A stretch of DNA of 64,000 nt, from sequence record NC_054930.1. One strand, written 5' to 3'. Below are positions 8,752-57,885 of the stretch, piece by piece. Made by a program: the position numbers and the translations under genes. Within the stretch, counting starts at the first letter, position 1. Each line of letters starts with the position of its first letter. This stretch comes from Escherichia phage PP01. A model generated the notes under the pieces. That model worked only from the letters and a program-made list of their open reading frames with translations. It was not told where the DNA came from and did no database searches.

Positions 8752-8777
8752 TCTCTAACGATAGAAACACAATTTTA

Positions 8778-8800
8778 GGGAACCTTCGGGTTCCCTTTTT
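8778..8800. terminator. Hairpin GGGAACC-UUCG-GGUUCCC followed by T5, between convergent genes 23 and segD
   Basis: 7-bp stem, UUCG loop, U-run. Confidence 0.7.
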
Positions 8801-9471
8801 CTATTTTATACGATAGCAATCAGGCATATCATCCGCATTTATCCAATTGCGAATAGTTTTAGGACTAACTTTAAAATGCTCCGCTGCGTAATCAGGATTA
8901 TCAAATTTAACGCCCTTTATACATATTGGAATAAATTTTTTAATACCACCAAGTTTTTCAGAAATAGCTTTACGGTGTGAAATCGATATAGGTTTATTTT
9001 TTCGTGGATGAACATGTGTTTTATAATATTCATTGCGCCCTTTAACTCGCTTCGCAATAGTTTCATCAGATTGCTTAACGCCTGTTTTTGCCTTTGATAT
9101 TTTTCGTTTAGCTTCCACAGTCATTCCTTCTTTTGTTCGTATTGATAACATATTACGATATGAAGGATCTTGCAAATGAACTATAACTGGATTTCCTCTG
9201 CCACCAATAGCAGCATTATAGGTATCAGTTCTCATAACGAATTCCTCATTGACTAGTAAAGCTTCCATTTTATACATCTCCTCAGATGAGGAGAAAGAAT
9301 AAAGAATTTCTTTTTAAAGTTATGAATACCATATTTTTTGATGGATTTTTTGATGTTTACGCCAGAACCCATATAACCATCGTTTTCGTCAAGAGTAGCA
9401 TGAGCTCCGATGTAAATTTTTCCATTGATGATATTAGTAATTTGATATATTAAATATTTCATTTTAAACAT
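8801..9471 (-). pseudogene. segD: GIY-YIG homing endonuclease segD, split by a -1 frameshift in an A5 tract (N-terminal ORF to 9253, C-terminal ORF 8801..9277)
   Basis: N-terminal part has [18 protein letters not shown]...YMGSG (GIY-YIG); restoring one A at about 9311-9316 fuses ...[30 protein letters not shown]... into a 223-aa protein, the remembered T4 SegD length. Confidence 0.75.
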
Positions 9472-12372: not shown

Positions 12373-12442
12373 GTTATCGAGTTGATGCCATTATATACAC
12401 CGTTTTCTGATTGTGTTTTATGTGCTTTCAAAATGAAGAAAG

Positions 12443-12456
12443 GGGCCGAAGCCCCT
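12443..12456 (-). terminator. Hairpin GGGGC-UUCG-GCCCC (minus-strand reading) just after the hoc stop
   Basis: Inverted repeat seen. Confidence 0.5.
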
Positions 12457-12460
12457 GAGA

Positions 12461-13879
12461 TTATGGATAGGTATAGATGATACCAGTTTCTAAAGCAGTT
12501 TTATGAATGATGTATCCATTGCGCGATTCTTGAACATCAACTTCTGGATAGTCTTTCATCATCTTCTGAAGAGTGTAACGATGCAAGTAGTATTTACTAT
12601 CTGGATCTTCAGTTTTCCAATCTTTACCTTCTTCAGTCATTTTTTGGATTTCATCCATAACCCACCAACCGCACCAGATATAAGCTGAGCTACGATGTGG
12701 AAGAGGATGAACATAAGGTAATTCACCTTCTGGTTCCGGAGCAACTTTATCAGTCACTTGAACTTGACCTGTGGCTTTAACTGTTTTACTATCATAGTCA
12801 GTTGCTGTAACGACAGCAGTAACTTCAATAGTTTGACTTCCAATAGATGATGTATCAACGGTGTATACATTAGTTGACCCTTCTACAGGAGAAGAATCTT
12901 TCTTCCATGAATACGTAATTTGTGCTTCTTCCGGAGCATCCGTAACGTTAGCAGTAAATGTAGCCGAAGCATCTTGCTGAACATTAATAGAAGGAGGAGT
13001 CAATGTAACCTGTGGATTCATTGTCTTCTTATTAACTGTCAATGATACTTCATTGGAAGTAACTTCCTTTTCATTATAATTTTCTGCAGTTACTTGGGCT
13101 ACGCATTTAATTCTTTTTACTCCACTTGTAGTTGGAGTATAGTTAAATGTAGAGTTAGTTTCTCCACCAACTTGTGAATCATCTACATACCACTGATACG
13201 TGGCAGACGCTCCATCGGGTTGAGAAGCTAAGGCAGCAGTAAATTGAACCGGAGTTCCAATTACTCCAGCAGCAGGACTAGCAGGAGTTACTGCCAAGGT
13301 AGTTGTCTGCGTCTTTTTATTAACCGTCAATGATACTTCATTAGAAGTAACGCTCAATGCATCATAATCTGTCGCAGTTACTTGAGCTACACACTTGATT
13401 TTTTTAACTCCGCTTGTGGAAGGAGTGTAATTGAATGTAGCGTCAGTTGCTTCGTCTACAGGAGAACCGTCAACATACCATTGATACGTAGCAGATGCGC
13501 CCGATGGCTGTGAAGCTAAGGCAGCAGTAAATTCAACGGCTGTTCCGATTACTCCTTCTGGAGGACTATTAGGAGTTACAGCTAAGGTAGTTGTCTGTGT
13601 CTTATTTTGAACTGTGATAGTTGTACTAATTTCAGCTGTTTCAGCTTCAGCTTCTGGAACTGTATTTGTTGCAACCACTTTAATAGTCTTTTGACCAGCA
13701 GGTCCTTTTAATACATAATTAAAGGTTGCTTCAGCTCCATCCTGTGGAACATTATCTACGCTCCAAGCATAGGTAATAGTTCCACCTCCAGTTTCACCAC
13801 TGGGTGTAGCAGTAAACTGCTTGGTTTCATCAATAACCCCTGTTGGTGTTTTAGGAGTTATATCAACTGTAAAAGCCAT
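12461..13879 (-). CDS. hoc: Highly immunogenic outer capsid protein Hoc, with four Ig-like modules plus the capsid-binding C-terminus
   Basis: 472 aa; N- and C-termini as remembered for T4 Hoc (376 aa); contains an extra ~96-aa Ig-like repeat. Confidence 0.93.
   Translation of the reverse strand: MAFTVDITPKTPTGVIDETKQFTATPSGETGGGTITYAWSVDNVPQDGAEATFNYVLKGPAGQKTIKVVATNTVPEAEAETAEISTTITVQNKTQTTTLAVTPNSPPEGVIGTAVEFTAALASQPSGASATYQWYVDGSPVDEATDATFNYTPSTSGVKKIKCVAQVTATDYDALSVTSNEVSLTVNKKTQTTTLAVTPASPAAGVIGTPVQFTAALASQPDGASATYQWYVDDSQVGGETNSTFNYTPTTSGVKRIKCVAQVTAENYNEKEVTSNEVSLTVNKKTMNPQVTLTPPSINVQQDASATFTANVTDAPEEAQITYSWKKDSSPVEGSTNVYTVDTSSIGSQTIEVTAVVTATDYDSKTVKATGQVQVTDKVAPEPEGELPYVHPLPHRSSAYIWCGWWVMDEIQKMTEEGKDWKTEDPDSKYYLHRYTLQKMMKDYPEVDVQESRNGYIIHKTALETGIIYTYP
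13034..13606 (-). repeat. Tandem in-frame duplication (2 x ~288 bp) encoding two near-identical Ig-like modules within hoc
   Basis: Protein residues 92-186 and 187-282 align closely (NKTQTTTLAVTP...SNEVSLTV twice); the DNA similarity is also visible. Confidence 0.85.
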
Positions 13880-24756: not shown

Positions 24757-24760
24757 CAAT

Positions 24761-24778
24761 GGGGACCTTTCGGTCCCC
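24761..24778. terminator. Hairpin GGGGACC-uuuc-GGUCCCC followed by a U-run, between convergent genes 54 and alt.-3
   Basis: 7-bp inverted repeat. Confidence 0.65.
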
Positions 24779-24784
24779 GTGTTT

Positions 24785-25075
24785 TTATTTACGGAATGAA
24801 ATAAAAGCAGCAACTGAAGCAACTAAACTGTCTTCAATATAAACTTCAATTTTTACCGGAGCTTCTGACTCAAATTTACCTGTTACTACACCTTGGAAAA
24901 TGCTTTCAGTCTGCTCTGGCTTTGAAAAATTTTCAGAAGGAAAAATTCCGAACTTTTTATCTGTTCCAAAAATTTTGATAAATTCATCATAAACTGCTTC
25001 ATTAAAAGCGTTATCAGCAGGAATAACGCCTTCAACTACGAGTTCTTGACCTAAAAAGCGCAAAGAAGATTTCAT
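24785..25075 (-). CDS. alt.-3: Hypothetical protein (T4 alt.-3 position)
   Basis: 96 aa; preceded by an early promoter and a GAGGA RBS. Confidence 0.75.
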   Translation of the reverse strand: MKSSLRFLGQELVVEGVIPADNAFNEAVYDEFIKIFGTDKKFGIFPSENFSKPEQTESIFQGVVTGKFESEAPVKIEVYIEDSLVASVAAFISFRK

Positions 25076-25082
25076 TTTGTGT

Positions 25083-25136
25083 TCCTCATGTTATGTCAGT
25101 AAGATTATTATAACACAACACGAGGGACTTGTAAAC
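25083..25136 (-). promoter_or_regulatory. T4-type early promoter plus leader (-35 GTTTACA, 17-bp spacer, -10 TATAAT, SD GAGGA); copy A of a 54-bp exact repeat
   Basis: Minus-strand reading GTTTACAAGTCCCTCGTGTTGTGTTATAATAATCTTACTGACATAACATGAGGA; identical to 40667-40720. Confidence 0.8.
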
Positions 25137-27193
25137 TACATTTTGAACTTTTTAGACATTCCGTTGATGTTAACCAAAGAAGCCAAGATTTGAGAAACTT
25201 CATTTTCCTCTTCTTTTGATTCTTCTACAAGGAATTGATTAAATCCAGCCATTGGACGAACTTCACCAGTTTCCATTAGATGGTCGCCATCATATACCGA
25301 TTCTTTTAATTGTTCAGAAGGAGGAACGATTGTGCCTTCGATTAAATACTTATTATAAGCAGTTTCTTTCATCATGTACGTACTCACTTTATTAATCTTC
25401 AGCAAAATTCCACGCGGTAAAATAACTTCAGCTTCTGACGGAAATCCTGATAAATGCCCTGGAACGATAACTTTGATTCGCTCAGCTCCTTTAATTACCA
25501 TACCCACGCTAGTTTCAGCATCTTCATTCGCATAAGCAGAATGACTGCCCATATGCATTAAATCTTCAGCATCAACGGAACCTTCTCCTTCACCAGAAAA
25601 TACTGCACCGGAATCATCTAGAGCCATATAGTTTTTACCATACTCACCGAAGATATTTGGTTTAAGCGATGTGGATACGAAGTTCTTGAAATAGAACATT
25701 TTATTTTCAATATTATGACGTAAAGTTTTAAAGGTAACTTCTTGTCCACGGTAAAGTGTAGTTCCTGGAGGAAGAACTGATCCTTTGGCAAAGGCAGAAT
25801 CCATTGTCTCGATGTGTTTAATAGCTCGTTCCATGTATTCTTCACGTGTAGAATCCGGTTTACCTAAAAGGAACGAGTTCATTTCAACATATGAATCTGC
25901 ACAATAATCTTCAATTACATCAGACTCAGCCTGAGTTAATCCTTTTGGAGTTACTTCAGTACTTGCATATTCATACGCTTGAGAAGCAGACTCATTAATC
26001 AATTTATAAACGCCATTCATGACAAATTGAATAATAGCTACCTTTTCATCTGGCGTGGCTTTAGAACCTTTAACTAAATCATTGACGATTTTCTTAATAA
26101 CATCAAAGCTATTAGAAATATTAATGTCAGCAAGATCGCTTAAAATTTTATCAGTTTTATAATCAAAAAATTCTTTATTCTTTAAATATTCTTGAGAACC
26201 TTGATATGTTATATCGCTCTGTAACTTGATAGATGGATCACGTAAACGTGCATGAGCCAATGCAATATGATTTCGGAAGCTTTCTAGTTCATAATCACTA
26301 GATTTAAAACGAGAAGCACTTCTCATACCACCGATAGCTCCTTTGCTGAAGTTTGAACCAACCTGAATAACGCCGGAGTTCATTGGTCCTTCTGCTTTAT
26401 ATACCGGAACTTTAGATTCAAACTCTTGGTATTTCTTAGCAGCGAAGCTATCACCCTGAAGTGAAGCATCGACGGTAGAGTATTGAGCTTGTGCTGCTAA
26501 TCGACGACTAATTTTAGTTTTCTGAATAACAGCTTGATCCGTGCGCTTATCATTTTCTAAAGCAATAGAAGCGGCAACAGCGACAGCTTTAGGAACAGCA
26601 TTACCTGTTTTAACATCTACATAAACATCACCAACCTTTGATTCAACTTTTGTGAATAACTCAGTTGAAATAGGAGGTACACCTGGAATGTCTTCTAAAT
26701 TGGCATTTTTACGGTAAACCATAATATATGCATATTTCTTATCATAGTCCCAGATTTCCTTTAAAAGAACATATCGACCTGCTCCTTTAGTACGTACTAA
26801 ACGGTCGGCAATAACTTGCATTTGACGAGCTGCGCCATTTGTTTTACTCTTTAGTACGCGGAATAAGCATGCGTCAATTTTGTACTGTTTCATTGTCTGA
26901 AGAGCAGTATCAAAAACCGCATTAATGACACCAATTGGATTTCCACCCAAGTTTTTAAGTTTAACTAATGATAGTTTCTCATTAACACCTATCATTACGA
27001 TATGCATCATTTTATCGCCTGGCTTAACGTTTTTATTCGTATCACCGCCAGAGGTGTATGTACAAAATCTAAATCCAGGAAGCACGCTTTCTTCGCCTGC
27101 TTGAATAGCAAAAATTTGAGGTATTTTATGCTTAGGATTTAAGTTAACAACCGGCGCCGAAGCGCCGTCAAATAATTCTGTAATAAGTTCCAT
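25136..27193 (-). CDS. Alt-family ADP-ribosyltransferase, paralog 1 (685 aa)
   Basis: N-terminus MELITELFD; ART signature YRGQ ... FVSTSL ... SEAEVILPRG (Arg, S-T-S, E-x-E); paralogous to the adjacent ORF. Confidence 0.88.
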   Translation of the reverse strand: MELITELFDGASAPVVNLNPKHKIPQIFAIQAGEESVLPGFRFCTYTSGGDTNKNVKPGDKMMHIVMIGVNEKLSLVKLKNLGGNPIGVINAVFDTALQTMKQYKIDACLFRVLKSKTNGAARQMQVIADRLVRTKGAGRYVLLKEIWDYDKKYAYIMVYRKNANLEDIPGVPPISTELFTKVESKVGDVYVDVKTGNAVPKAVAVAASIALENDKRTDQAVIQKTKISRRLAAQAQYSTVDASLQGDSFAAKKYQEFESKVPVYKAEGPMNSGVIQVGSNFSKGAIGGMRSASRFKSSDYELESFRNHIALAHARLRDPSIKLQSDITYQGSQEYLKNKEFFDYKTDKILSDLADINISNSFDVIKKIVNDLVKGSKATPDEKVAIIQFVMNGVYKLINESASQAYEYASTEVTPKGLTQAESDVIEDYCADSYVEMNSFLLGKPDSTREEYMERAIKHIETMDSAFAKGSVLPPGTTLYRGQEVTFKTLRHNIENKMFYFKNFVSTSLKPNIFGEYGKNYMALDDSGAVFSGEGEGSVDAEDLMHMGSHSAYANEDAETSVGMVIKGAERIKVIVPGHLSGFPSEAEVILPRGILLKINKVSTYMMKETAYNKYLIEGTIVPPSEQLKESVYDGDHLMETGEVRPMAGFNQFLVEESKEEENEVSQILASLVNINGMSKKFKM

Positions 27194-27196
27194 GAT

Positions 27197-29290
27197 TTAT
27201 CCTTGAACGAACTTGTAAGGCATGTTTGTAATATCTATGCAAGACGCAATAATTCCAAGAGATGATTCTACTTTCTGTTTAATATTTGATGAAACAAATG
27301 ATGCAAAGTCAACTCTGTCTTCTATTTCAATATCATCTGTCATTGCAACTACTTCGCCGGTTTCCATTAGACGGTCACCGTCATAAATTACTGATTCGGT
27401 GAGTTCTTCCGTAGTCATAACTTCAGCTTGAATGAGTTTTGTATTATTAGATGTTGTTCCGTCATTATTAGAAGCATCAGTTATTTTATTAACTTTGACC
27501 ATCAATCCGCGTGGTAGAATAACTTCAGCTTCTGTTGCTATTCCGAGACTTCCTGGATATACAACATTAACTTTATGAGCTCCATCAATTGCCCATCCTA
27601 TTTGAACTTTAACGTATTCAGGATTTTCTTTATACGCTCTTATTTCGTTTGGATTGATAGTTATTCCTTCTTCATTTTTATCAACTGTTAATTCATTACG
27701 AGCTTCTGGTTCTAAAAGACCTATACCAGCATGTGTAATTCCAAAACGTCCAAAAATGATAGGAGTTAAAGAAGTAGATACAAAATTTCTGAAATAGAAC
27801 ACTTTATTTTTAACTAGTGCTTCGTATATAGGAGCAGTCATGCTTTGAGCACGATAAACTGTAATGCCTTCTGGTATACGGTCACCATTTTCAAAAGCTG
27901 AATCTAAATTATTTATCGCAGATTCAATTTCTTTTTCACTCATTACATCATATCGTTCTGGATTGTAGCGGCCTAAAAGAAGATTATTGATGTCAGTATA
28001 TCCTGATCCACAATACTCTCTAATGCCGCGCTTTTGCGATGGAGTATATTTAGAACCATCACGTGCAATGGTAATATCAATCATTGGACCTGCACCAATT
28101 CCAGAAAAGCTATAAATCATTCGTTTGAGGAATTTAGTTTTTGCTGCGTTCCAGGAATTTTTAGTTATTTCTTCCCAGACTTCATCTGGCTGCCCTTTAC
28201 GAGTTTTATTATGTTTATCAAGCCAATTATCTTTATATTCTTCAAAGAATTGATTAACAGCTGCTGCGTATTTCTCTAAACATTTTATTGAAGTAGTTGG
28301 TTCATTTTTAATCGCATTAAGAATTACATCTTTAATTTTTTCAGAAACTTCATTAACCTCACTTTTTGAAAAGAATTTATAATCATAGTGAAGTTCATCT
28401 GCAGTTCCTTCAGCAATAATTTTTGCTGCCTTAGTTTTAGAAGCTAATGAATTAATTCCAAGTTTCATTTCTTCTGCTTCAGGAATTAAAGGAGCTGTAG
28501 CAGGTTTATTGAAATTAGCTGCGGTAGATTCATACTTCTGGAATAATTCACTTTCAAATCTAGAAGATTCTAATGATTGACTTTGCGCAATTGCTCTACG
28601 GGAAATTTTAACTTTAACGATTACAGCTTGGTCAGAACGTTTATCATTTTCTTGTGCAATAGAAGCAGCAATTGCCTCATTTTTAGTTACTTGAGCTCCA
28701 GTATCTTTATTAATATAAACATCGCCGACTTTCGATTCAACTTTAGTAAAGAGCTCGGTACTAATTTCCGGAACTCCTGGAATGTCTTCTAGTGATACAT
28801 TTTTGCGATGTATAAGAATATATGCATACTTTTTATCATAATCCCAGAGTTCCTTAAGAAGGACGTATCTGCCACCTGAACGACTACGGATAAGTCTATC
28901 AGCAATAACTTGAATTTGTCGAGCTTGACCAGCAGTTTTAGACTTAAGAATACGAAGCATGCAGGCATCAATTTTATACTGACGCATTGTTTGCATTGCA
29001 ATAGTAAAAACTGAATTGATATAATTAATTGGGCTTGGACCGAGACCTTTTAATTTAGCAATTGAACCTTTAGCAGTTAATGTAAAAGGAACAATATGCA
29101 TCATTTTATCGCCCATTTTTAAATCGCGATTAGTATCACCTCCAGATGTATAGGTACATAAACGAAAGCCTGGTTGTTCAATTGCGTCATCAACGTGAAC
29201 TGAAAAAATTTGTGGTATTTTCTTCTTTGGATTTAAGTTTGTAATCGGAAGAGTAGTATCTTCGTCAAATAATTCTGTAATAAGTTCCAT
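27197..29290 (-). CDS. alt: Alt-family ADP-ribosyltransferase, paralog 2 (697 aa from the second ATG), RNA polymerase ADP-ribosylase-like
   Basis: N-terminus MELITELFDEDTTLPITNLNPKKK; ART signature YRAQ ... FVSTSL ... TEAEVILPRG; GAGG RBS 6 nt before the second ATG. Confidence 0.88.
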   Translation of the reverse strand: MELITELFDEDTTLPITNLNPKKKIPQIFSVHVDDAIEQPGFRLCTYTSGGDTNRDLKMGDKMMHIVPFTLTAKGSIAKLKGLGPSPINYINSVFTIAMQTMRQYKIDACMLRILKSKTAGQARQIQVIADRLIRSRSGGRYVLLKELWDYDKKYAYILIHRKNVSLEDIPGVPEISTELFTKVESKVGDVYINKDTGAQVTKNEAIAASIAQENDKRSDQAVIVKVKISRRAIAQSQSLESSRFESELFQKYESTAANFNKPATAPLIPEAEEMKLGINSLASKTKAAKIIAEGTADELHYDYKFFSKSEVNEVSEKIKDVILNAIKNEPTTSIKCLEKYAAAVNQFFEEYKDNWLDKHNKTRKGQPDEVWEEITKNSWNAAKTKFLKRMIYSFSGIGAGPMIDITIARDGSKYTPSQKRGIREYCGSGYTDINNLLLGRYNPERYDVMSEKEIESAINNLDSAFENGDRIPEGITVYRAQSMTAPIYEALVKNKVFYFRNFVSTSLTPIIFGRFGITHAGIGLLEPEARNELTVDKNEEGITINPNEIRAYKENPEYVKVQIGWAIDGAHKVNVVYPGSLGIATEAEVILPRGLMVKVNKITDASNNDGTTSNNTKLIQAEVMTTEELTESVIYDGDRLMETGEVVAMTDDIEIEDRVDFASFVSSNIKQKVESSLGIIASCIDITNMPYKFVQG

Positions 29291-29324
29291 CATATCCTCT
29301 CTAGTGTTTATTCTATTTATAAAA

Positions 29325-33048: not shown

Positions 33049-33065
33049 AGTATTTTCCTCAGTAA

Positions 33066-33079
33066 GGGGCCGAAGCCCC
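33066..33079 (-). terminator. Hairpin GGGGC-UUCG-GCCCC (minus-strand reading) after the 125-aa ORF
   Basis: Inverted repeat. Confidence 0.45.
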
Positions 33080-33089
33080 TCATTTTATT

Positions 33090-33855: not shown

Positions 33856-33943
33856 TTTATTCTCCTTTGTTTGTGTAAGATAATACTATCACAAAGGAAC
33901 CATACTGTAAACAACTTTGTGCAATCTTTGGAAAATAAAAAAG

Positions 33944-33961
33944 GACTCCCGAAGGAGTCCT
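33944..33961 (-). terminator. Hairpin GGACUCC-UUCG-GGAGUCC (minus-strand reading)
   Basis: 7-bp inverted repeat. Confidence 0.45.
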
Positions 33962-33965
33962 CAAC

Positions 33966-34184
33966 TTATGCTTTCTGCTTACCAAAACGAGAAGCATCAT
34001 CTCGAAGAACCGCACGTGCTCGACGCATGATCTTCTCAACAGTTTGATTGATACGAGAGTTCGACGCACGCTTGTAACCAGCGCGTTTAGAATCACCAAC
34101 TTTCTTTTCAACTGCTTTCTTTGCTTTAGCTTGTTTTGCCATTGTAAATTCTCTTTTAAATGAAAATGCAGGACTTATTGGCAT
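33966..34184 (-). CDS. Small basic protein (Lys/Arg-rich), possibly T4 30.7-like; start may be the internal ATG at 34142
   Basis: 72-aa ORF; the overlapping ORF 33857-34111 is judged spurious. Confidence 0.5.
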   Translation of the reverse strand: MPISPAFSFKREFTMAKQAKAKKAVEKKVGDSKRAGYKRASNSRINQTVEKIMRRARAVLRDDASRFGKQKA

Positions 34185-39816: not shown

Positions 39817-40166
39817 TTAGAAAGGTCCTGGATGTCTTCTGCGAACTTGTTGAAGGAGTTGTTGATTTGTTTTTCAACCAATCCTGGCTTATGAGCCACC
39901 ACATCCGCCTTCTTTGCATCTTTGCGCAGTTTTTCATTTTCACGCTCAATAGCAGCAATTGCCTCACGATTTTTATTATTCATCGCATCAATATAATTAT
40001 ATTGAATTTTTAAATCATTCAATGCTAAAGCGTTTTCATTGGCCGTTTTTGTAATTTCAGTAACCGATGTTTCTAATCTTTCTACCTTATTTTTTAAAAT
40101 AATAGATGTTCCGCCAAATGCTATTACAAGTAATAGCAATCCAGCTGTAAAATTACTTACATGCAT
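39813..40166 (-). CDS. Inner-membrane spanin (i-spanin, Rz equivalent)
   Basis: 117 aa; N-terminal transmembrane segment FTAGLLLLVIAFGGTSIIL followed by a coiled-coil-like region. Confidence 0.8.
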   Translation of the reverse strand: MHVSNFTAGLLLLVIAFGGTSIILKNKVERLETSVTEITKTANENALALNDLKIQYNYIDAMNNKNREAIAAIERENEKLRKDAKKADVVAHKPGLVEKQINNSFNKFAEDIQDLSK

Positions 40167-40663
40167 AAAGTTTTAATAACCTCTACAATATCGTCTTGAG
40201 AAAGACCGTTAATTAAAATATGATGTTCAGCTGGAGATTTAGAAATTTTAAAGCATGCCTCAACATCTTCTGCCATATCTGATGCGCTACGATTTGGATT
40301 ACTAATTCCAAGACGATGTTTTCCCGTCAAAGGATTAACGATGATGTAGCATTTACAGCTATTAATGTGAACATTAGGTTGAGTCTGATTAATGAATACT
40401 TCACAATCGTATTTCGCAAGCTGATTTTCTAAAAAGACTTTCATCTCCTCGACCGCATCAGGAAGCATATCACGAGCTTGCTCAAGACGACGATTTCGAT
40501 ATTCTTTGATGGTCGTTTTCCGCTTAACTTGCTTAGCTAAATCTTTCTTAAGATCGGTGATATATCCAACTCGACGATTTCCTTTGAATACAGAAATCCC
40601 ATCTGTAGTATCACCGTATGCTTCAACGACCATCTCAGTAGTAATAAACTGCAAATCCATCAT
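40157..40663 (-). CDS. alc: Alc, inhibitor of host transcription
   Basis: About 167 aa; synteny; preceded by an early promoter. Confidence 0.85.
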   Translation of the reverse strand: MMDLQFITTEMVVEAYGDTTDGISVFKGNRRVGYITDLKKDLAKQVKRKTTIKEYRNRRLEQARDMLPDAVEEMKVFLENQLAKYDCEVFINQTQPNVHINSCKCYIIVNPLTGKHRLGISNPNRSASDMAEDVEACFKISKSPAEHHILINGLSQDDIVEVIKTLCM

Positions 40664-40666
40664 AAA

Positions 40667-40720
40667 GTCCTCATGTTATGTCAGTAAGATTATTATAACA
40701 CAACACGAGGGACTTGTAAA
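40667..40720 (-). promoter_or_regulatory. T4-type early promoter plus leader, copy B of the 54-bp exact repeat (upstream of alc)
   Basis: Identical 54 bp to 25083-25136: -35 GTTTACA, 17 bp, -10 TATAAT, SD GAGGA. Confidence 0.8.
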
Positions 40721-40724
40721 CAGC

Positions 40725-42312
<1,588 letters not shown>

Positions 42313-52860: not shown

Positions 52861-55800
52861 ATGGCCGAGATTAAAAGAAAGTTCAGAGCAGAAGATGGTC
52901 TGGACGCAGGTGGTGATAAAATAATCAACGTAGCTTTAGCTGATCGTGCCGTAGGAACTGACGGCGTTAACGTTGATTACTTAATTCAAGAAAACACAGT
53001 TCAACAATATGATCCAACTCGTGGATATTTAAAAGATTTTGTAATCATTTATGATAACCGCTTTTGGGCTGCTATAAATGATATTCCAAAACCAGCAGGA
53101 GCTTTTAATAGCGTACGATGGAGAGCGTTACGTACTCATGCAAACTGGACAGCTGTTTCATCAGGACCTTATCAATTAAAATCAGGCGAATCAATTTCAG
53201 TTGATACTGCAGCTGGTAATGACATTACATTTACTTTACCATCTACCCCAATTGACGGTGATACTATCGTTCTCCAAGATATTGGAGGAAAACCTGGAGT
53301 TAATCAAGTTTTAATTACAGCTCCGGTACAAAGCATTGTAAATTTTAGAGGTCAGCAAGTACGATCAGTACTAATGACTCATCCAAAATCACAGATAGTT
53401 TTAATTTTTAGTAATCGTCTGTGGCAAATGTATGTCGCTGATTATAGTAGAGAAGCTGTAGTTGTAACGCCTGCGAGTCTCTATCAGGCGCAATCAAACG
53501 ATTTTATCGTACGTAGATTTACTTCTGCTTCAGCAATTAATATTAAACTTCCAAGATTTGCTAATCATGGCGATATTATTAATTTCGTTGATTTGGATAA
53601 ATTAAATCCTCTTTATCACACAATTGTTACTACATATGATGAAACAACTTCAGTACAAGAAGTTGGAACTCATTCCATTGAAGGCCGTACATCGATTGAC
53701 GGTTTCTTGATGTTTGATGATAATGAGAAATTGTGGAGATTGTTTGACGGGGATAGTAAAGCACGTTTACGCATTATAACAACTAATTCTAATATTCGTC
53801 CAAATGAAGAAGTCATGGTATTTGGCGCGAATAATGGAACAACCCAAACAATTGAACTTCAGCTTCCGACTGATATTTCTGTTGGTGATACTGTCAAAAT
53901 TTCCATGAATTACATGAGAAAAGGACAAACAGTTAAAATCAAAGCTGCAGGTGAAGATAAAATTGCTTCTTCAGTTCAATTGTTGCAATTCCCAAAACGC
54001 TCAGAATATCCGCCTGAAGCTGAATGGGTAACAGTTCAAGAATTAGTTTTTAACGGTGAAACTAATTATGTTCCAGTTTTGGAGCTTGCTTATATAGAAG
54101 ATTCTGATGGAAAATACTGGGTTGTACAACAAAACGTTCCAACTGTAGAAAGAGTAGATTCTTTAAATGATTCTACTAGAGCAAGATTAGGCGTAATTGC
54201 TTTAGCTACACAAGCTCAAGCTAATGCTGATTTAGAAAATTCTCCACAAAAAGAATTGGCAATTACTCCAGAAACGTTAGCTAACCGTACTGCTACTGAA
54301 ACTCGCAGAGGTATCGCAAGAATAGCAACAACTGCTCAAGTTAACCAGGATACTACATTCTCTTTTGCTGATGATATTATCATCACTCCTAAAAAGCTGA
54401 ATGAAAGAACAGCTACTGAAACTCGCAGAGGTGTTGCTGAAATTGCTACGCAGCAAGAAACTAATGCAGGAACCGATGATACTACAATCATCACTCCTAA
54501 AAAGCTTCAAGCTCGTCAAGGTTCTGAATCATTATCTGGTATTGTAACCTTTGTATCTACTGCAGGTGCTACTCCAGCTTCTAGCCGTGAATTAAATGGT
54601 ACGAATGTTTATAATAAAAACACTGATAATTTAGTTGTTTCACCTAAAGCTTTGGATCAGTATAAAGCTACTCCAACACAACAAGGTGCGGTAATTTTAG
54701 CAGTTGAAAGTGAAGTAATTGCTGGACAAAGTCAGGAAGGATGGGCAAATGCTGTTGTAACGCCAGAAACGTTACATAAAAAGACATCAACTGATGGAAG
54801 AATTGGTTTAATTGAAATTGCTACGCAAAGTGAAGTTAATACAGGAACTGATTATACTCGTGCAGTCACTCCTAAAACTTTAAATGACCGTAGAGCAACT
54901 GAAAGTTTAAGTGGTATAGCTGAAATTGCTACACAAGTTGAATTCGACGCAGGCGTCGACGATACTCGTATCTCTACGCCATTAAAAATTAAAACCAGAT
55001 TTAATAGTACTGATCGTACTTCTGTTGTTGCTCTATCTGGATTAGTTGAATCAGGAACTCTCTGGGACCATTATACCCTTAATATTCTTGAAGCAAATGA
55101 GACACAGCGTGGTACACTTCGTGTGGCTACACAAGTTGAAGCTGCTGCAGGAACATTGGATAATGTTCTAATAACTCCTAAAAAGCTTTTAGGTACTAAA
55201 TCTACTGAAGCACAGGAAGGTGTTATTAAAGTTGCAACTCAGTCTGAAACTGTGGCTGGAACGTCAGCAAATACTGCTGTATCTCCAAAAAATTTAAAAT
55301 GGATTGTGCAGAGTGAACCAACTTGGGCAGCAACTACTCTGATAAGAGGGTTTGTTAAAACTTCATCTGGTTCAATTACATTCGTTGGTAATGATACCGT
55401 TGGTTCAACGCAGTCATTAGAATTATACGAGAAAAATAGTTATGCAGTATCGCCATACGAATTAAACCGTGTATTAGCAAATTATTTGCCGTTAAAAGCA
55501 AAAGCTGTAGATAGTAATTTACTGGATGGTCTAGATTCATCTCAGTTCATTCGTAGGGATATTGCACAAACGGTTAATGGTTCACTAACCTTAACACAAC
55601 AAACGAATCTGAGTGCCCCTCTTGTATCATCTAGTACTGCTACATTCGGTGGATCAGTTTCAGCAAATAGTACATTAACTATTTCTAATACTGGAACGGC
55701 AACTCGTCTGATTTTTGAGAAAGGACCTCAAACTGGAACAAACCCGGCTCAAACGATGACAGTCAGAGTGTGGGGAAATCAATTTAGCGGGGAATCAGAC

Positions 55801-56738: not shown

Positions 56739-57854
56739 ATGGAAAAATTTATGGCAGAGTTTGGACAAGGATATGTCCAAACGCCATTTTTATCGGAAAG
56801 CAATTCAGTAAGATACAAAATAAGCATAGCGGGTTCTTGCCCGCTTTCTACAGCAGGACCATACGTTAAATTTCAGGATAATCCTGTAGGAAGTCAAACA
56901 TTTAGCGCAGGCCTTCATTTAAGAGTTTTTGACCCTTCCACGGGAGCATTAGTTGATAGTAAGTCATATGCTTTTTCGACTTCAAATGATACAACATCTG
57001 CCGCTTTTGTTAGCTTCATGAATTCTTTGACGAATAATCGAATTGTTGCTATATTAACTAACGGAAAGGTTAATTTTCCTCCTGAAGTAGTATCTTGGTT
57101 AAGAACCGCAGGAACGTCTGCTTTTCCATCTGATTCTATATTGTCAAGATTTGACGTATCATATGCTGCTTTTTACACTTCTTCTAAAAGAGCTATCGCA
57201 TTAGAGCATGTTAAACTGAGTAATAGAAAAAGCACAGATGATTATCAAACTATTTTAGATGTTGTATTTGACAGTTTAGAAGATGTTGGAGCTACCGGGT
57301 TTCCAAGAAGAACGTATGAAAGTGTTGAGCAATTCATGTCAGCGGTTGGTGGAACTAATAACGAAATTGCACGTTTACCAACTTCATCCGCGATAAGTAA
57401 ACTCTCTGATTATAATTTAATTCCTGGCGATGTTCTTTATCTTAAAGCGCAGTTATATGCTGATGCAGATTTACTTGCGCTTGGAACTACAAATATATCT
57501 ATCCGTTTTTATGATGAATTGAATGGATATATTTCTTCAACACACGCTGAGTTTACTGGACAAGCTGGGTCATGGGAATTAAAGGAAGATTATGTAGTTA
57601 TTCCAGAAAATGCAGTAGGATTTACGATATATGCACAAAGAACTGCTCAAGCTGGTCAAGGTGGCATGAGGAATTTAAGCTTTTCGGAAGTGTCAAGAAA
57701 TGGAAGTATTTCGAAACCTGCTGAATTTGGCGTCAATGGTATTCGAGTTAATTATGTCTGTGAATCTGCTTCACCTCCAGATATAATGGTACTTCCTACA
57801 CAAGCATCGTCTAAAACTGGTAAAGTGTTTGGACAAGAATTTAGAGAAGTTTAA
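56739..57854 (+). CDS. 35: Long tail fibre hinge protein gp35
   Basis: 371 aa; synteny. Confidence 0.92.
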   Translation: MEKFMAEFGQGYVQTPFLSESNSVRYKISIAGSCPLSTAGPYVKFQDNPVGSQTFSAGLHLRVFDPSTGALVDSKSYAFSTSNDTTSAAFVSFMNSLTNNRIVAILTNGKVNFPPEVVSWLRTAGTSAFPSDSILSRFDVSYAAFYTSSKRAIALEHVKLSNRKSTDDYQTILDVVFDSLEDVGATGFPRRTYESVEQFMSAVGGTNNEIARLPTSSAISKLSDYNLIPGDVLYLKAQLYADADLLALGTTNISIRFYDELNGYISSTHAEFTGQAGSWELKEDYVVIPENAVGFTIYAQRTAQAGQGGMRNLSFSEVSRNGSISKPAEFGVNGIRVNYVCESASPPDIMVLPTQASSKTGKVFGQEFREV

Positions 57855-57860
57855 ATTGAG

Positions 57861-57880
57861 GGAGCCTTCGGGTTCCCTTT
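57861..57880 (+). terminator. Hairpin GGAGCC-UUCG-GGUUCC followed by a U-run after gene 35
   Basis: Inverted repeat with U-run. Confidence 0.55.
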
Positions 57881-57885
57881 TTCTT

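Follow-up and report, generated by a model that had tools for sequence, protein, structure and literature searches.

Two distant early promoter cassettes of a Tequatrovirus are identical over 54 nucleotides, probably through recurrent gene conversion

The Tequatrovirus DNA analysed here, a stretch of 64,000 nucleotides (the window), carries two identical copies of a 54-nt cassette that joins an early promoter to a short leader and a Shine-Dalgarno (SD) sequence. One copy would start a one-gene alt.-3 unit, the other the alc-pseT.3-pseT.2 transcript. We consider it probable that recurrent ectopic gene conversion between two ancient cassettes has homogenised these copies. Conversion is inferred because, within Tequatrovirus, the two sites show no fixed differences and share polymorphisms with the same alleles, and because a tract of converted sequence can be read in phage VR5. 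The components and the process are well known. For the pair itself we found no earlier description, and no mapped T4 start sites, in the literature searched, which did not include the main T4 genome paper (Miller et al. 2003).

The two copies have the same orientation, lie 15585 nt apart from start to start (Table 1) and agree at 54 of 54 positions. Since the adjoining bases differ on both sides (T at 25082 versus G at 40667, and T at 25137 versus A at 40722), 54 nt is the full extent of the repeat. The exact, same-orientation 54-bp repeat reported in an earlier note on this DNA is thereby confirmed, except that its second copy, placed there at 40667-40720, is shifted by one base and runs from 40668 to 40721. 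A search for further copies across the window, with up to three mismatches allowed, returned only these two matches to the 54-mer, and none in 100 dinucleotide-preserving shuffles. The pair is also the sole long exact repeat among the repeat families listed for the window. Among 14 early-promoter-like sites compared in the window, any other pair had at most 33 of 54 positions in common. Hence, the identity of the two copies goes beyond promoter consensus, as the same note had argued. Hundreds of genomes sequenced independently, T4, T2 and T6 among them, have the same pair; together with the empty shuffles, this refutes a chance resemblance or an assembly artefact, to which we assign practically no probability.

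Table 1. Positions of the two cassettes and of the neighbouring features in the window.
Feature	Position	Strand	Details
Copy 1, 54-nt cassette	25083..25136	-	-35 TTTACA 25135-25130; -10 TATAAT 25112-25107; SD GAGGA 25087-25083; predicted +1 near 25100
Copy 2, 54-nt cassette	40668..40721	-	-35 40720-40715; -10 40697-40692; SD 40672-40668; predicted +1 near 40685
alt.-3 homologue	24785..25075	-	96 aa; DUF5498 / phrog_1739; function unknown; sole gene of the copy-1 transcription unit
G+C-rich hairpin terminator	24759..24780	both	between gene 54 (+) and alt.-3 (-)
alc	40157..40663	-	inhibitor of host transcription; first gene downstream of copy 2
Second full-length Alt-like ADP-ribosyltransferase paralogue	25136..27193	-	upstream of copy 1
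rnlA (RNA ligase 1)	40725..41885	-	TAA stop 3 nt upstream of copy 2; A/T-rich 3' end at the UP-element position

Read on the minus strand, both copies present, in this order, GTTTACA, a 17-bp spacer, TG-n-TATAAT, about 6 nt to the predicted +1, a leader of about 18 nt and GAGGA, which matches the T4 early promoter, leader and GAGGA ribosome-binding site proposed earlier for that strand. Each scores 11 of 12 consensus matches (TTTACA / 17 / TATAAT) and has an extended -10, with TG ahead of the TATAAT hexamer. By inspection, the DNA upstream is A/T-rich, with CTAAAAAGTTCAAAATGTA at copy 1 and, farther upstream, AAAAATTATAAAAAATTTATC at copy 2. These stretches at the UP position fall within the 3' ends of the upstream genes, outside the repeat, and the two sites differ in them. 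At copy 1, the TAG stop of the second Alt paralogue overlaps the first base of the cassette, and the A-rich last 20 nt or so of that gene lie at the UP-element position. From GAGGA to ATG there are 7 nt at the alt.-3 homologue and 4 or 7 nt for the two candidate ATGs of alc, of which the T4 annotation uses the second (window 40660); HY01 lacks the first. A structured RNA element in the leader was considered and rejected, as the folds of both copies were no better than those of shuffled sequence and no Rfam family matched the leaders.

Time-resolved omics of T4 (PMC9697503 supplement) class both alt.-3 and alc as early, for RNA as well as protein, whereas alt.-1/alt.-2, immediately upstream of alt.-3, are 'middle'. 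This difference in timing, an indirect line of evidence, is what an independent early promoter predicts. From motifs and spacing we infer that each copy is a sigma-70-type T4 early promoter with a short unstructured leader and a Shine-Dalgarno sequence, at which transcription would start at the predicted +1. We further observed that the AUG within CAUGAGGA opens a mini-ORF of 4-5 codons (MRNTK or MRTL, then a stop; window 25073-25090 and 40658-40675, minus strand). This mini-ORF ends in a UGA that shares bases with the main start codon (AUGA), a layout also present at alt.-3 of RB69, VR5 and Melville. The mini-ORF is probably a by-product of the fixed SD-to-AUG spacing and of A-initial second codons.

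The window is 97-98.6% identical to many Tequatrovirus isolates and is not T4 itself. As stated in the earlier note, the copies precede alt.-3 and alc: the open reading frames behind them belong to the DUF5498/Alt.-3 family and to Alc (Table 1). The alt.-3 homologue, for which no relative with a solved structure was found, forms a one-gene unit because the hairpin terminator closes it. Spanin genes pseT.3 and pseT.2 come after alc, and copy 2 is predicted to head their common transcript. The N-termini of Alt.-3 and Alc look alike over 12 residues (LRFLGQELVVEG versus LQFITTEMVVEA). Homology reaching into the coding regions was rejected on a BLASTP E value of 0.077, a probability of 0.1% in a profile-profile comparison of five-genus alignments, and the DNA downstream of the repeat, which is not significantly similar by local alignment against shuffles (p = 0.13). 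The upstream flanks are not similar either (p = 0.55).

Copy 1 adjoins a full-length second Alt paralogue in this phage, versus an alt.-1/alt.-2 remnant in T4. Two Alt-like ADP-ribosyltransferases stand in tandem here (25136-27193 and 27197-29293, minus strand; 685 and 698 aa, both PF03496), and DNA repeats occur within them at a spacing of about 2.1 kb. What T4 retains as alt.-1/alt.-2 is left over from the paralogue nearest the promoter; since the junction of the T4 deletion falls about 20 nt ahead of the -35, the A-rich stretch CTAAAAAGTTCAAAATGTAG was kept. The truncation differs in phage sutha, and three paralogues are present in WG01. The annotated alt.-2 ORF of T4 overlaps the alt.-3 promoter, because it crosses the -35 and the spacer and its stop is the TAG within the -10 TATAGT (123065-123067).

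Nearly all of the 498 matching phage records have both sites (995 places), and scans of IMG/VR and metagenomes contributed only a few extra copies. In T4 the pair lies at 123040-123093 and 136283-136336, and its copies differ at one position. The relatives compared were RB69 and JK45 (RB69-like; JK45 is filed under Tequatrovirus), VR5 and WG01 (Dhakavirus), Marfa (Marfavirus) and Melville (Gelderlandvirus), all of which have early promoters at both syntenic positions. Genera with early promoters at both positions are Marfavirus, Gelderlandvirus, Mosigvirus, Dhakavirus and Tequatrovirus; in these five, the two sites are syntenic and flanked by the conserved genes alt / alt.-3 / 54 and rnlA / alc. 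Given this spread over five genera, we take the promoters to be old rather than recently inserted, and those at the alt.-3 and alc positions appear to be ancient in Tevenvirinae.

The likeness of the two cassettes within a genome is graded across these phages, with 54/54 identical positions in this phage, 46/53 in VR5, 40/52 in RB69, 34/53 in Marfa and 30/54 in Melville. The values for Marfa and Melville are at the level found between any two early promoters. RB69, JK45 and Marfa have an alt.-3-type leader AUGAGGA versus an alc-type ACGAGGA, and the alc leader of Melville reads ACGGAG. We dropped an attempt to type the Tequatrovirus cassette as alc- or alt.-3-type by way of the other genera, as the sequences are too short and consensus-laden, with AUGAGGA/ACGAGGA as the sole hint.

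The age of the promoters bears on a different history, in which a mobile, PeSL-type promoter cassette would recently have been duplicated or inserted at one site or the other. Recombining repeats of an early promoter plus SD are documented in T4-type phages (PMC2839356, PMC4122927). However, an early promoter is already present at both sites in five genera, neither site is distinguished by extra DNA, and the stem-loop that defines such cassettes is absent. No terminator-like site was found upstream of either copy, where 80 nt fold as shuffles do (z = -0.41 and 0.11); all that is found there is a weak 5-bp hairpin ahead of copy 2, with no U tract. That a cassette can be duplicated locally is illustrated by phage vB_EcoM-G28 (NC_054916.1 137844-138248), in which a 351-bp tandem duplication spans the 3' end of rnlA, the cassette and about the first 50 alc codons, and yields a third identical cassette plus a truncated alc' ORF. 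We rejected this third copy as proof of cassette mobility, because it arises from the tandem duplication, whose junction (...AAGCGG joined to GTGTTGC...) lies outside the cassette. Overall, we judge a recent mobile insertion highly unlikely.

Within Tequatrovirus, 24 copies from the alt.-3 site and 23 from the alc site were compared, with both sites represented in 20 genomes; because these genomes are phylogenetically related and were partly picked from BLAST lists, the statistics are approximate. No position among these copies carried a fixed difference between the sites. Of 11 distinct polymorphic positions, nine varied among the alt.-3 copies and eight among the alc copies. Six of them (15, 16, 29, 32, 33 and 34) were polymorphic at both sites, with the same allele pair at each; the overlap in position alone has a hypergeometric P of 8e-5 (six coincident among nine and eight). 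Paralogues differed by 1.8 within genomes and 2.14 between genomes, a borderline result (permutation p about 0.05), and this divergence was no larger than the orthologue diversity of 2.3 and 1.9. Five of the 20 genomes (this window, G28, RB51, Sf22 and one IMG/VR contig) had identical pairs, each with its own combination of variants. The -10 haplotypes AAT-AAT and AGT-AGT were found at both loci, and REP3 is swapped relative to HY01. The 54 bp from the -35 to the Shine-Dalgarno sequence would thus be one allele pool for two loci in this genus.

In Dhakavirus, a case that appears to be independent of Tequatrovirus has left its boundaries visible. WG01 and VR5 have the same alt.-3 upstream region. 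Upstream of alc, VR5 agrees with WG01 from rnlA through the -10, then carries the alt.-3 leader (ACCTTACACAAACATGAGGAGAACATTATGAA) for about 32 nt; the tract runs through ATGAA, and alc sequence resumes within the second codon. WG01 keeps the original alc leader. An alt.-3 leader at alc was seen only in the two VR5 records among Dhakavirus, and the other records of the genus (Bp7, WG01, MX01, JS10 and others) are 81-85% identical across the region. As read from these alignments, VR5 carries a discrete conversion tract with alt.-3 as donor and alc as recipient. Of the two origins offered in the earlier note, cassette duplication or gene conversion, the shared polymorphisms and the VR5 tract favour conversion, whereas the presence of promoters at both sites in five genera speaks against a recent duplication. 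As a separate observation, another T4 intergenic region (KJ477684.1 70271-70341) matches the alc promoter and leader of VR5 at about 80% over 73 nt; this match suggests that looser promoter-leader families may exist at other early loci.

The same patterns could in principle result from selection without any exchange, if parallel mutation were combined with a common constraint, for instance a requirement for equal output or a shared factor recognising the spacer or leader. Consistent with a constraint, AACAUGAGGA recurs just ahead of the start codon at alt.-3 in several genera. Moreover, two of the positions that vary at both sites, 29 and 32, belong to the -10 region (TATAAT versus TATAGT); either state makes a good promoter, and these variants could partly reflect recurrent functional toggling or mutational hot spots. 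Yet a constraint on 54 bp that vary at 11 distinct positions is not strict, and six coincident positions with identical alleles are unlikely to arise by chance, given the P value above. Parallel mutation also fits poorly with VR5, where a block of about 32 nt was replaced and donor and recipient are clear. Finally, the promoters of Marfa and Melville are alike only as any two early promoters are, so equal sequence is not required. We therefore regard selection without exchange as unlikely.

Under recurrent gene conversion, non-reciprocal homologous recombination, by a presumed recombination pathway, would repeatedly copy one site over the other, and the latest event in this phage would have left both copies identical. 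The lower homology limit for efficient recombination in T4 was reportedly put at about 50 bp by Singer et al. in 1982, so that 54 bp is near this limit, which counts against the conversion reading. Crossovers between the copies would give a 15.6-kb deletion or duplication, and these products would be lost, presumably because they are lethal.

Neither of the predicted crossover junctions, rnlA-cassette-alt.-3 and alt2-cassette-alc, was present in any of the 498 phage records. Between the copies lie genes 30 (DNA ligase) and 31 (co-chaperonin), which are essential in T4, so deletion of the interval would not yield viable phage. The headful terminal redundancy of T4 is a few kb, which a 15.6-kb duplication would exceed. 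These points weigh against the view that the pair is mainly a recombination substrate through which the alt-30-31-cd-pseT segment is deleted, duplicated or released as 15.6-kb circles. Such a role would suit repeats that are direct and exact, and PeSL pairs do give mini-circles in RB49 and phi1; even so, we find it most improbable here. The possibility raised in the earlier note, that the pair mediates deletion of the alt-30-cd-pseT segment, is likewise unsupported by the records and by the essential genes inside the interval. Crossovers may form in infected cells yet go uninherited, which would also explain the stability of the repeat pair.

A further proposal concerns the reason for homogenisation rather than its means. 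The cassettes might be kept the same since an identical immediate-early dosage and timing of Alt.-3 and Alc benefits the phage, with conversion as the means and selection favouring the converted genomes. We hold this to be a rather improbable addition. If it were true, Alt.-3 (DUF5498) would work with Alc or with the neighbouring Alt ADP-ribosyltransferases in the takeover of host transcription, or a common factor would read the leader.

Several other repeats and matches were noted in the window. Two tandem 288-nt units with 78% identity at 13023-13598 are presumably repeated domains within a gene. Several families of imperfect direct repeats of 30-68 nt at 54262-55187 encode the recurring peptide motif ITPETLANRTATETRRGIA (as read from the first copy) and were taken as tail-fibre-type repeats. 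Near-identical G+C-rich hairpins followed by T runs occur as pairs at 8771-8802 and 57853-57884 (GGGAACCTTCGGGTTCCC) and at 12437-12464 and 33061-33088 (GGGGCCGAAGCCCC); they look like terminators reused at distant sites. A sub-threshold Rfam match to the Rhizobiales sRNA Atu_C8 at 33927-34010 on the minus strand (31.4 bits versus a gathering score of 50, E = 0.0066) is probably due to chance.

If conversion is the correct reading, the pair is a natural example of regulatory DNA of a lytic phage that evolves in concert across 15.6 kb, a fairly ordinary case of its kind, and in one genus donor, recipient and tract can be read directly from the sequence. T4-type promoter cassettes are viewed as recombination substrates in the indel shuffling of plastic regions; the pair would widen this view to homogenisation that acts across an essential one. 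The pair could also serve as a simple test system for ectopic conversion in T4 at the minimum homology length, and flags the uncharacterised early gene alt.-3 as having expression signals in common with alc. On the practical side, PCR or recombineering aimed at one of the promoters will hit both.

T4 early promoters consist of UP, -35, TGn and -10 elements, as reviewed by Hinton 2010 (PMC2988021). The cassettes agree with them in GTTTACA, the 17-bp spacer, TGn with TATAAT or TATAGT, and downstream genes that are early in T4; the A/T-rich stretches seen upstream by inspection may correspond to the UP element. Ordinary T4 early promoters, however, share the consensus only (at most 33 of 54 positions here), whereas this pair is identical in spacer, discriminator, leader and SD as well.

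PeSLs (Arbiol et al. 2010, PMC2839356; Comeau et al. 2014, PMC4122927) are repeated units that combine an A/T-rich region and a stem-loop terminator with an early promoter and its Shine-Dalgarno sequence; they sit in hyperplastic regions, recombine, make mini-circles and shuffle ORFans. Like them, the pair is a repeated early promoter with SD and start codon and a recombination substrate between distant sites, and the PST/T4 promoter consensus TTTACW-N17-TAYWAT fits it. Unlike them, it has no stem-loop terminator upstream of the promoter. It also stands at conserved positions, where it flanks no ORFans or indels and brackets 15.6 kb with essential genes, and its visible outcome is homogenisation, not insertion or deletion. 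The pair is not classed as a PeSL because two defining features, the stem-loop and the hyperplastic location, are lacking.

The Hp17 gene amplifications in T4, said to have been described by Wu, Wu and Black in 1991 as rearrangements through short homology, resemble the present case in that the direct repeats used by T4 recombination are tens of bases long. They are crossovers that lead to amplifications and deletions, whereas this pair shows no crossover product in 498 genomes. Concerted evolution of dispersed repeats by gene conversion is familiar from bacteria, in tufA/tufB and in rRNA operons. The pair resembles these in its shared polymorphisms, the lack of fixed differences and the discrete conversion tracts. 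It differs from them in being a 54-bp non-coding regulatory unit in a lytic phage, with unrelated flanks and near-minimum homology.
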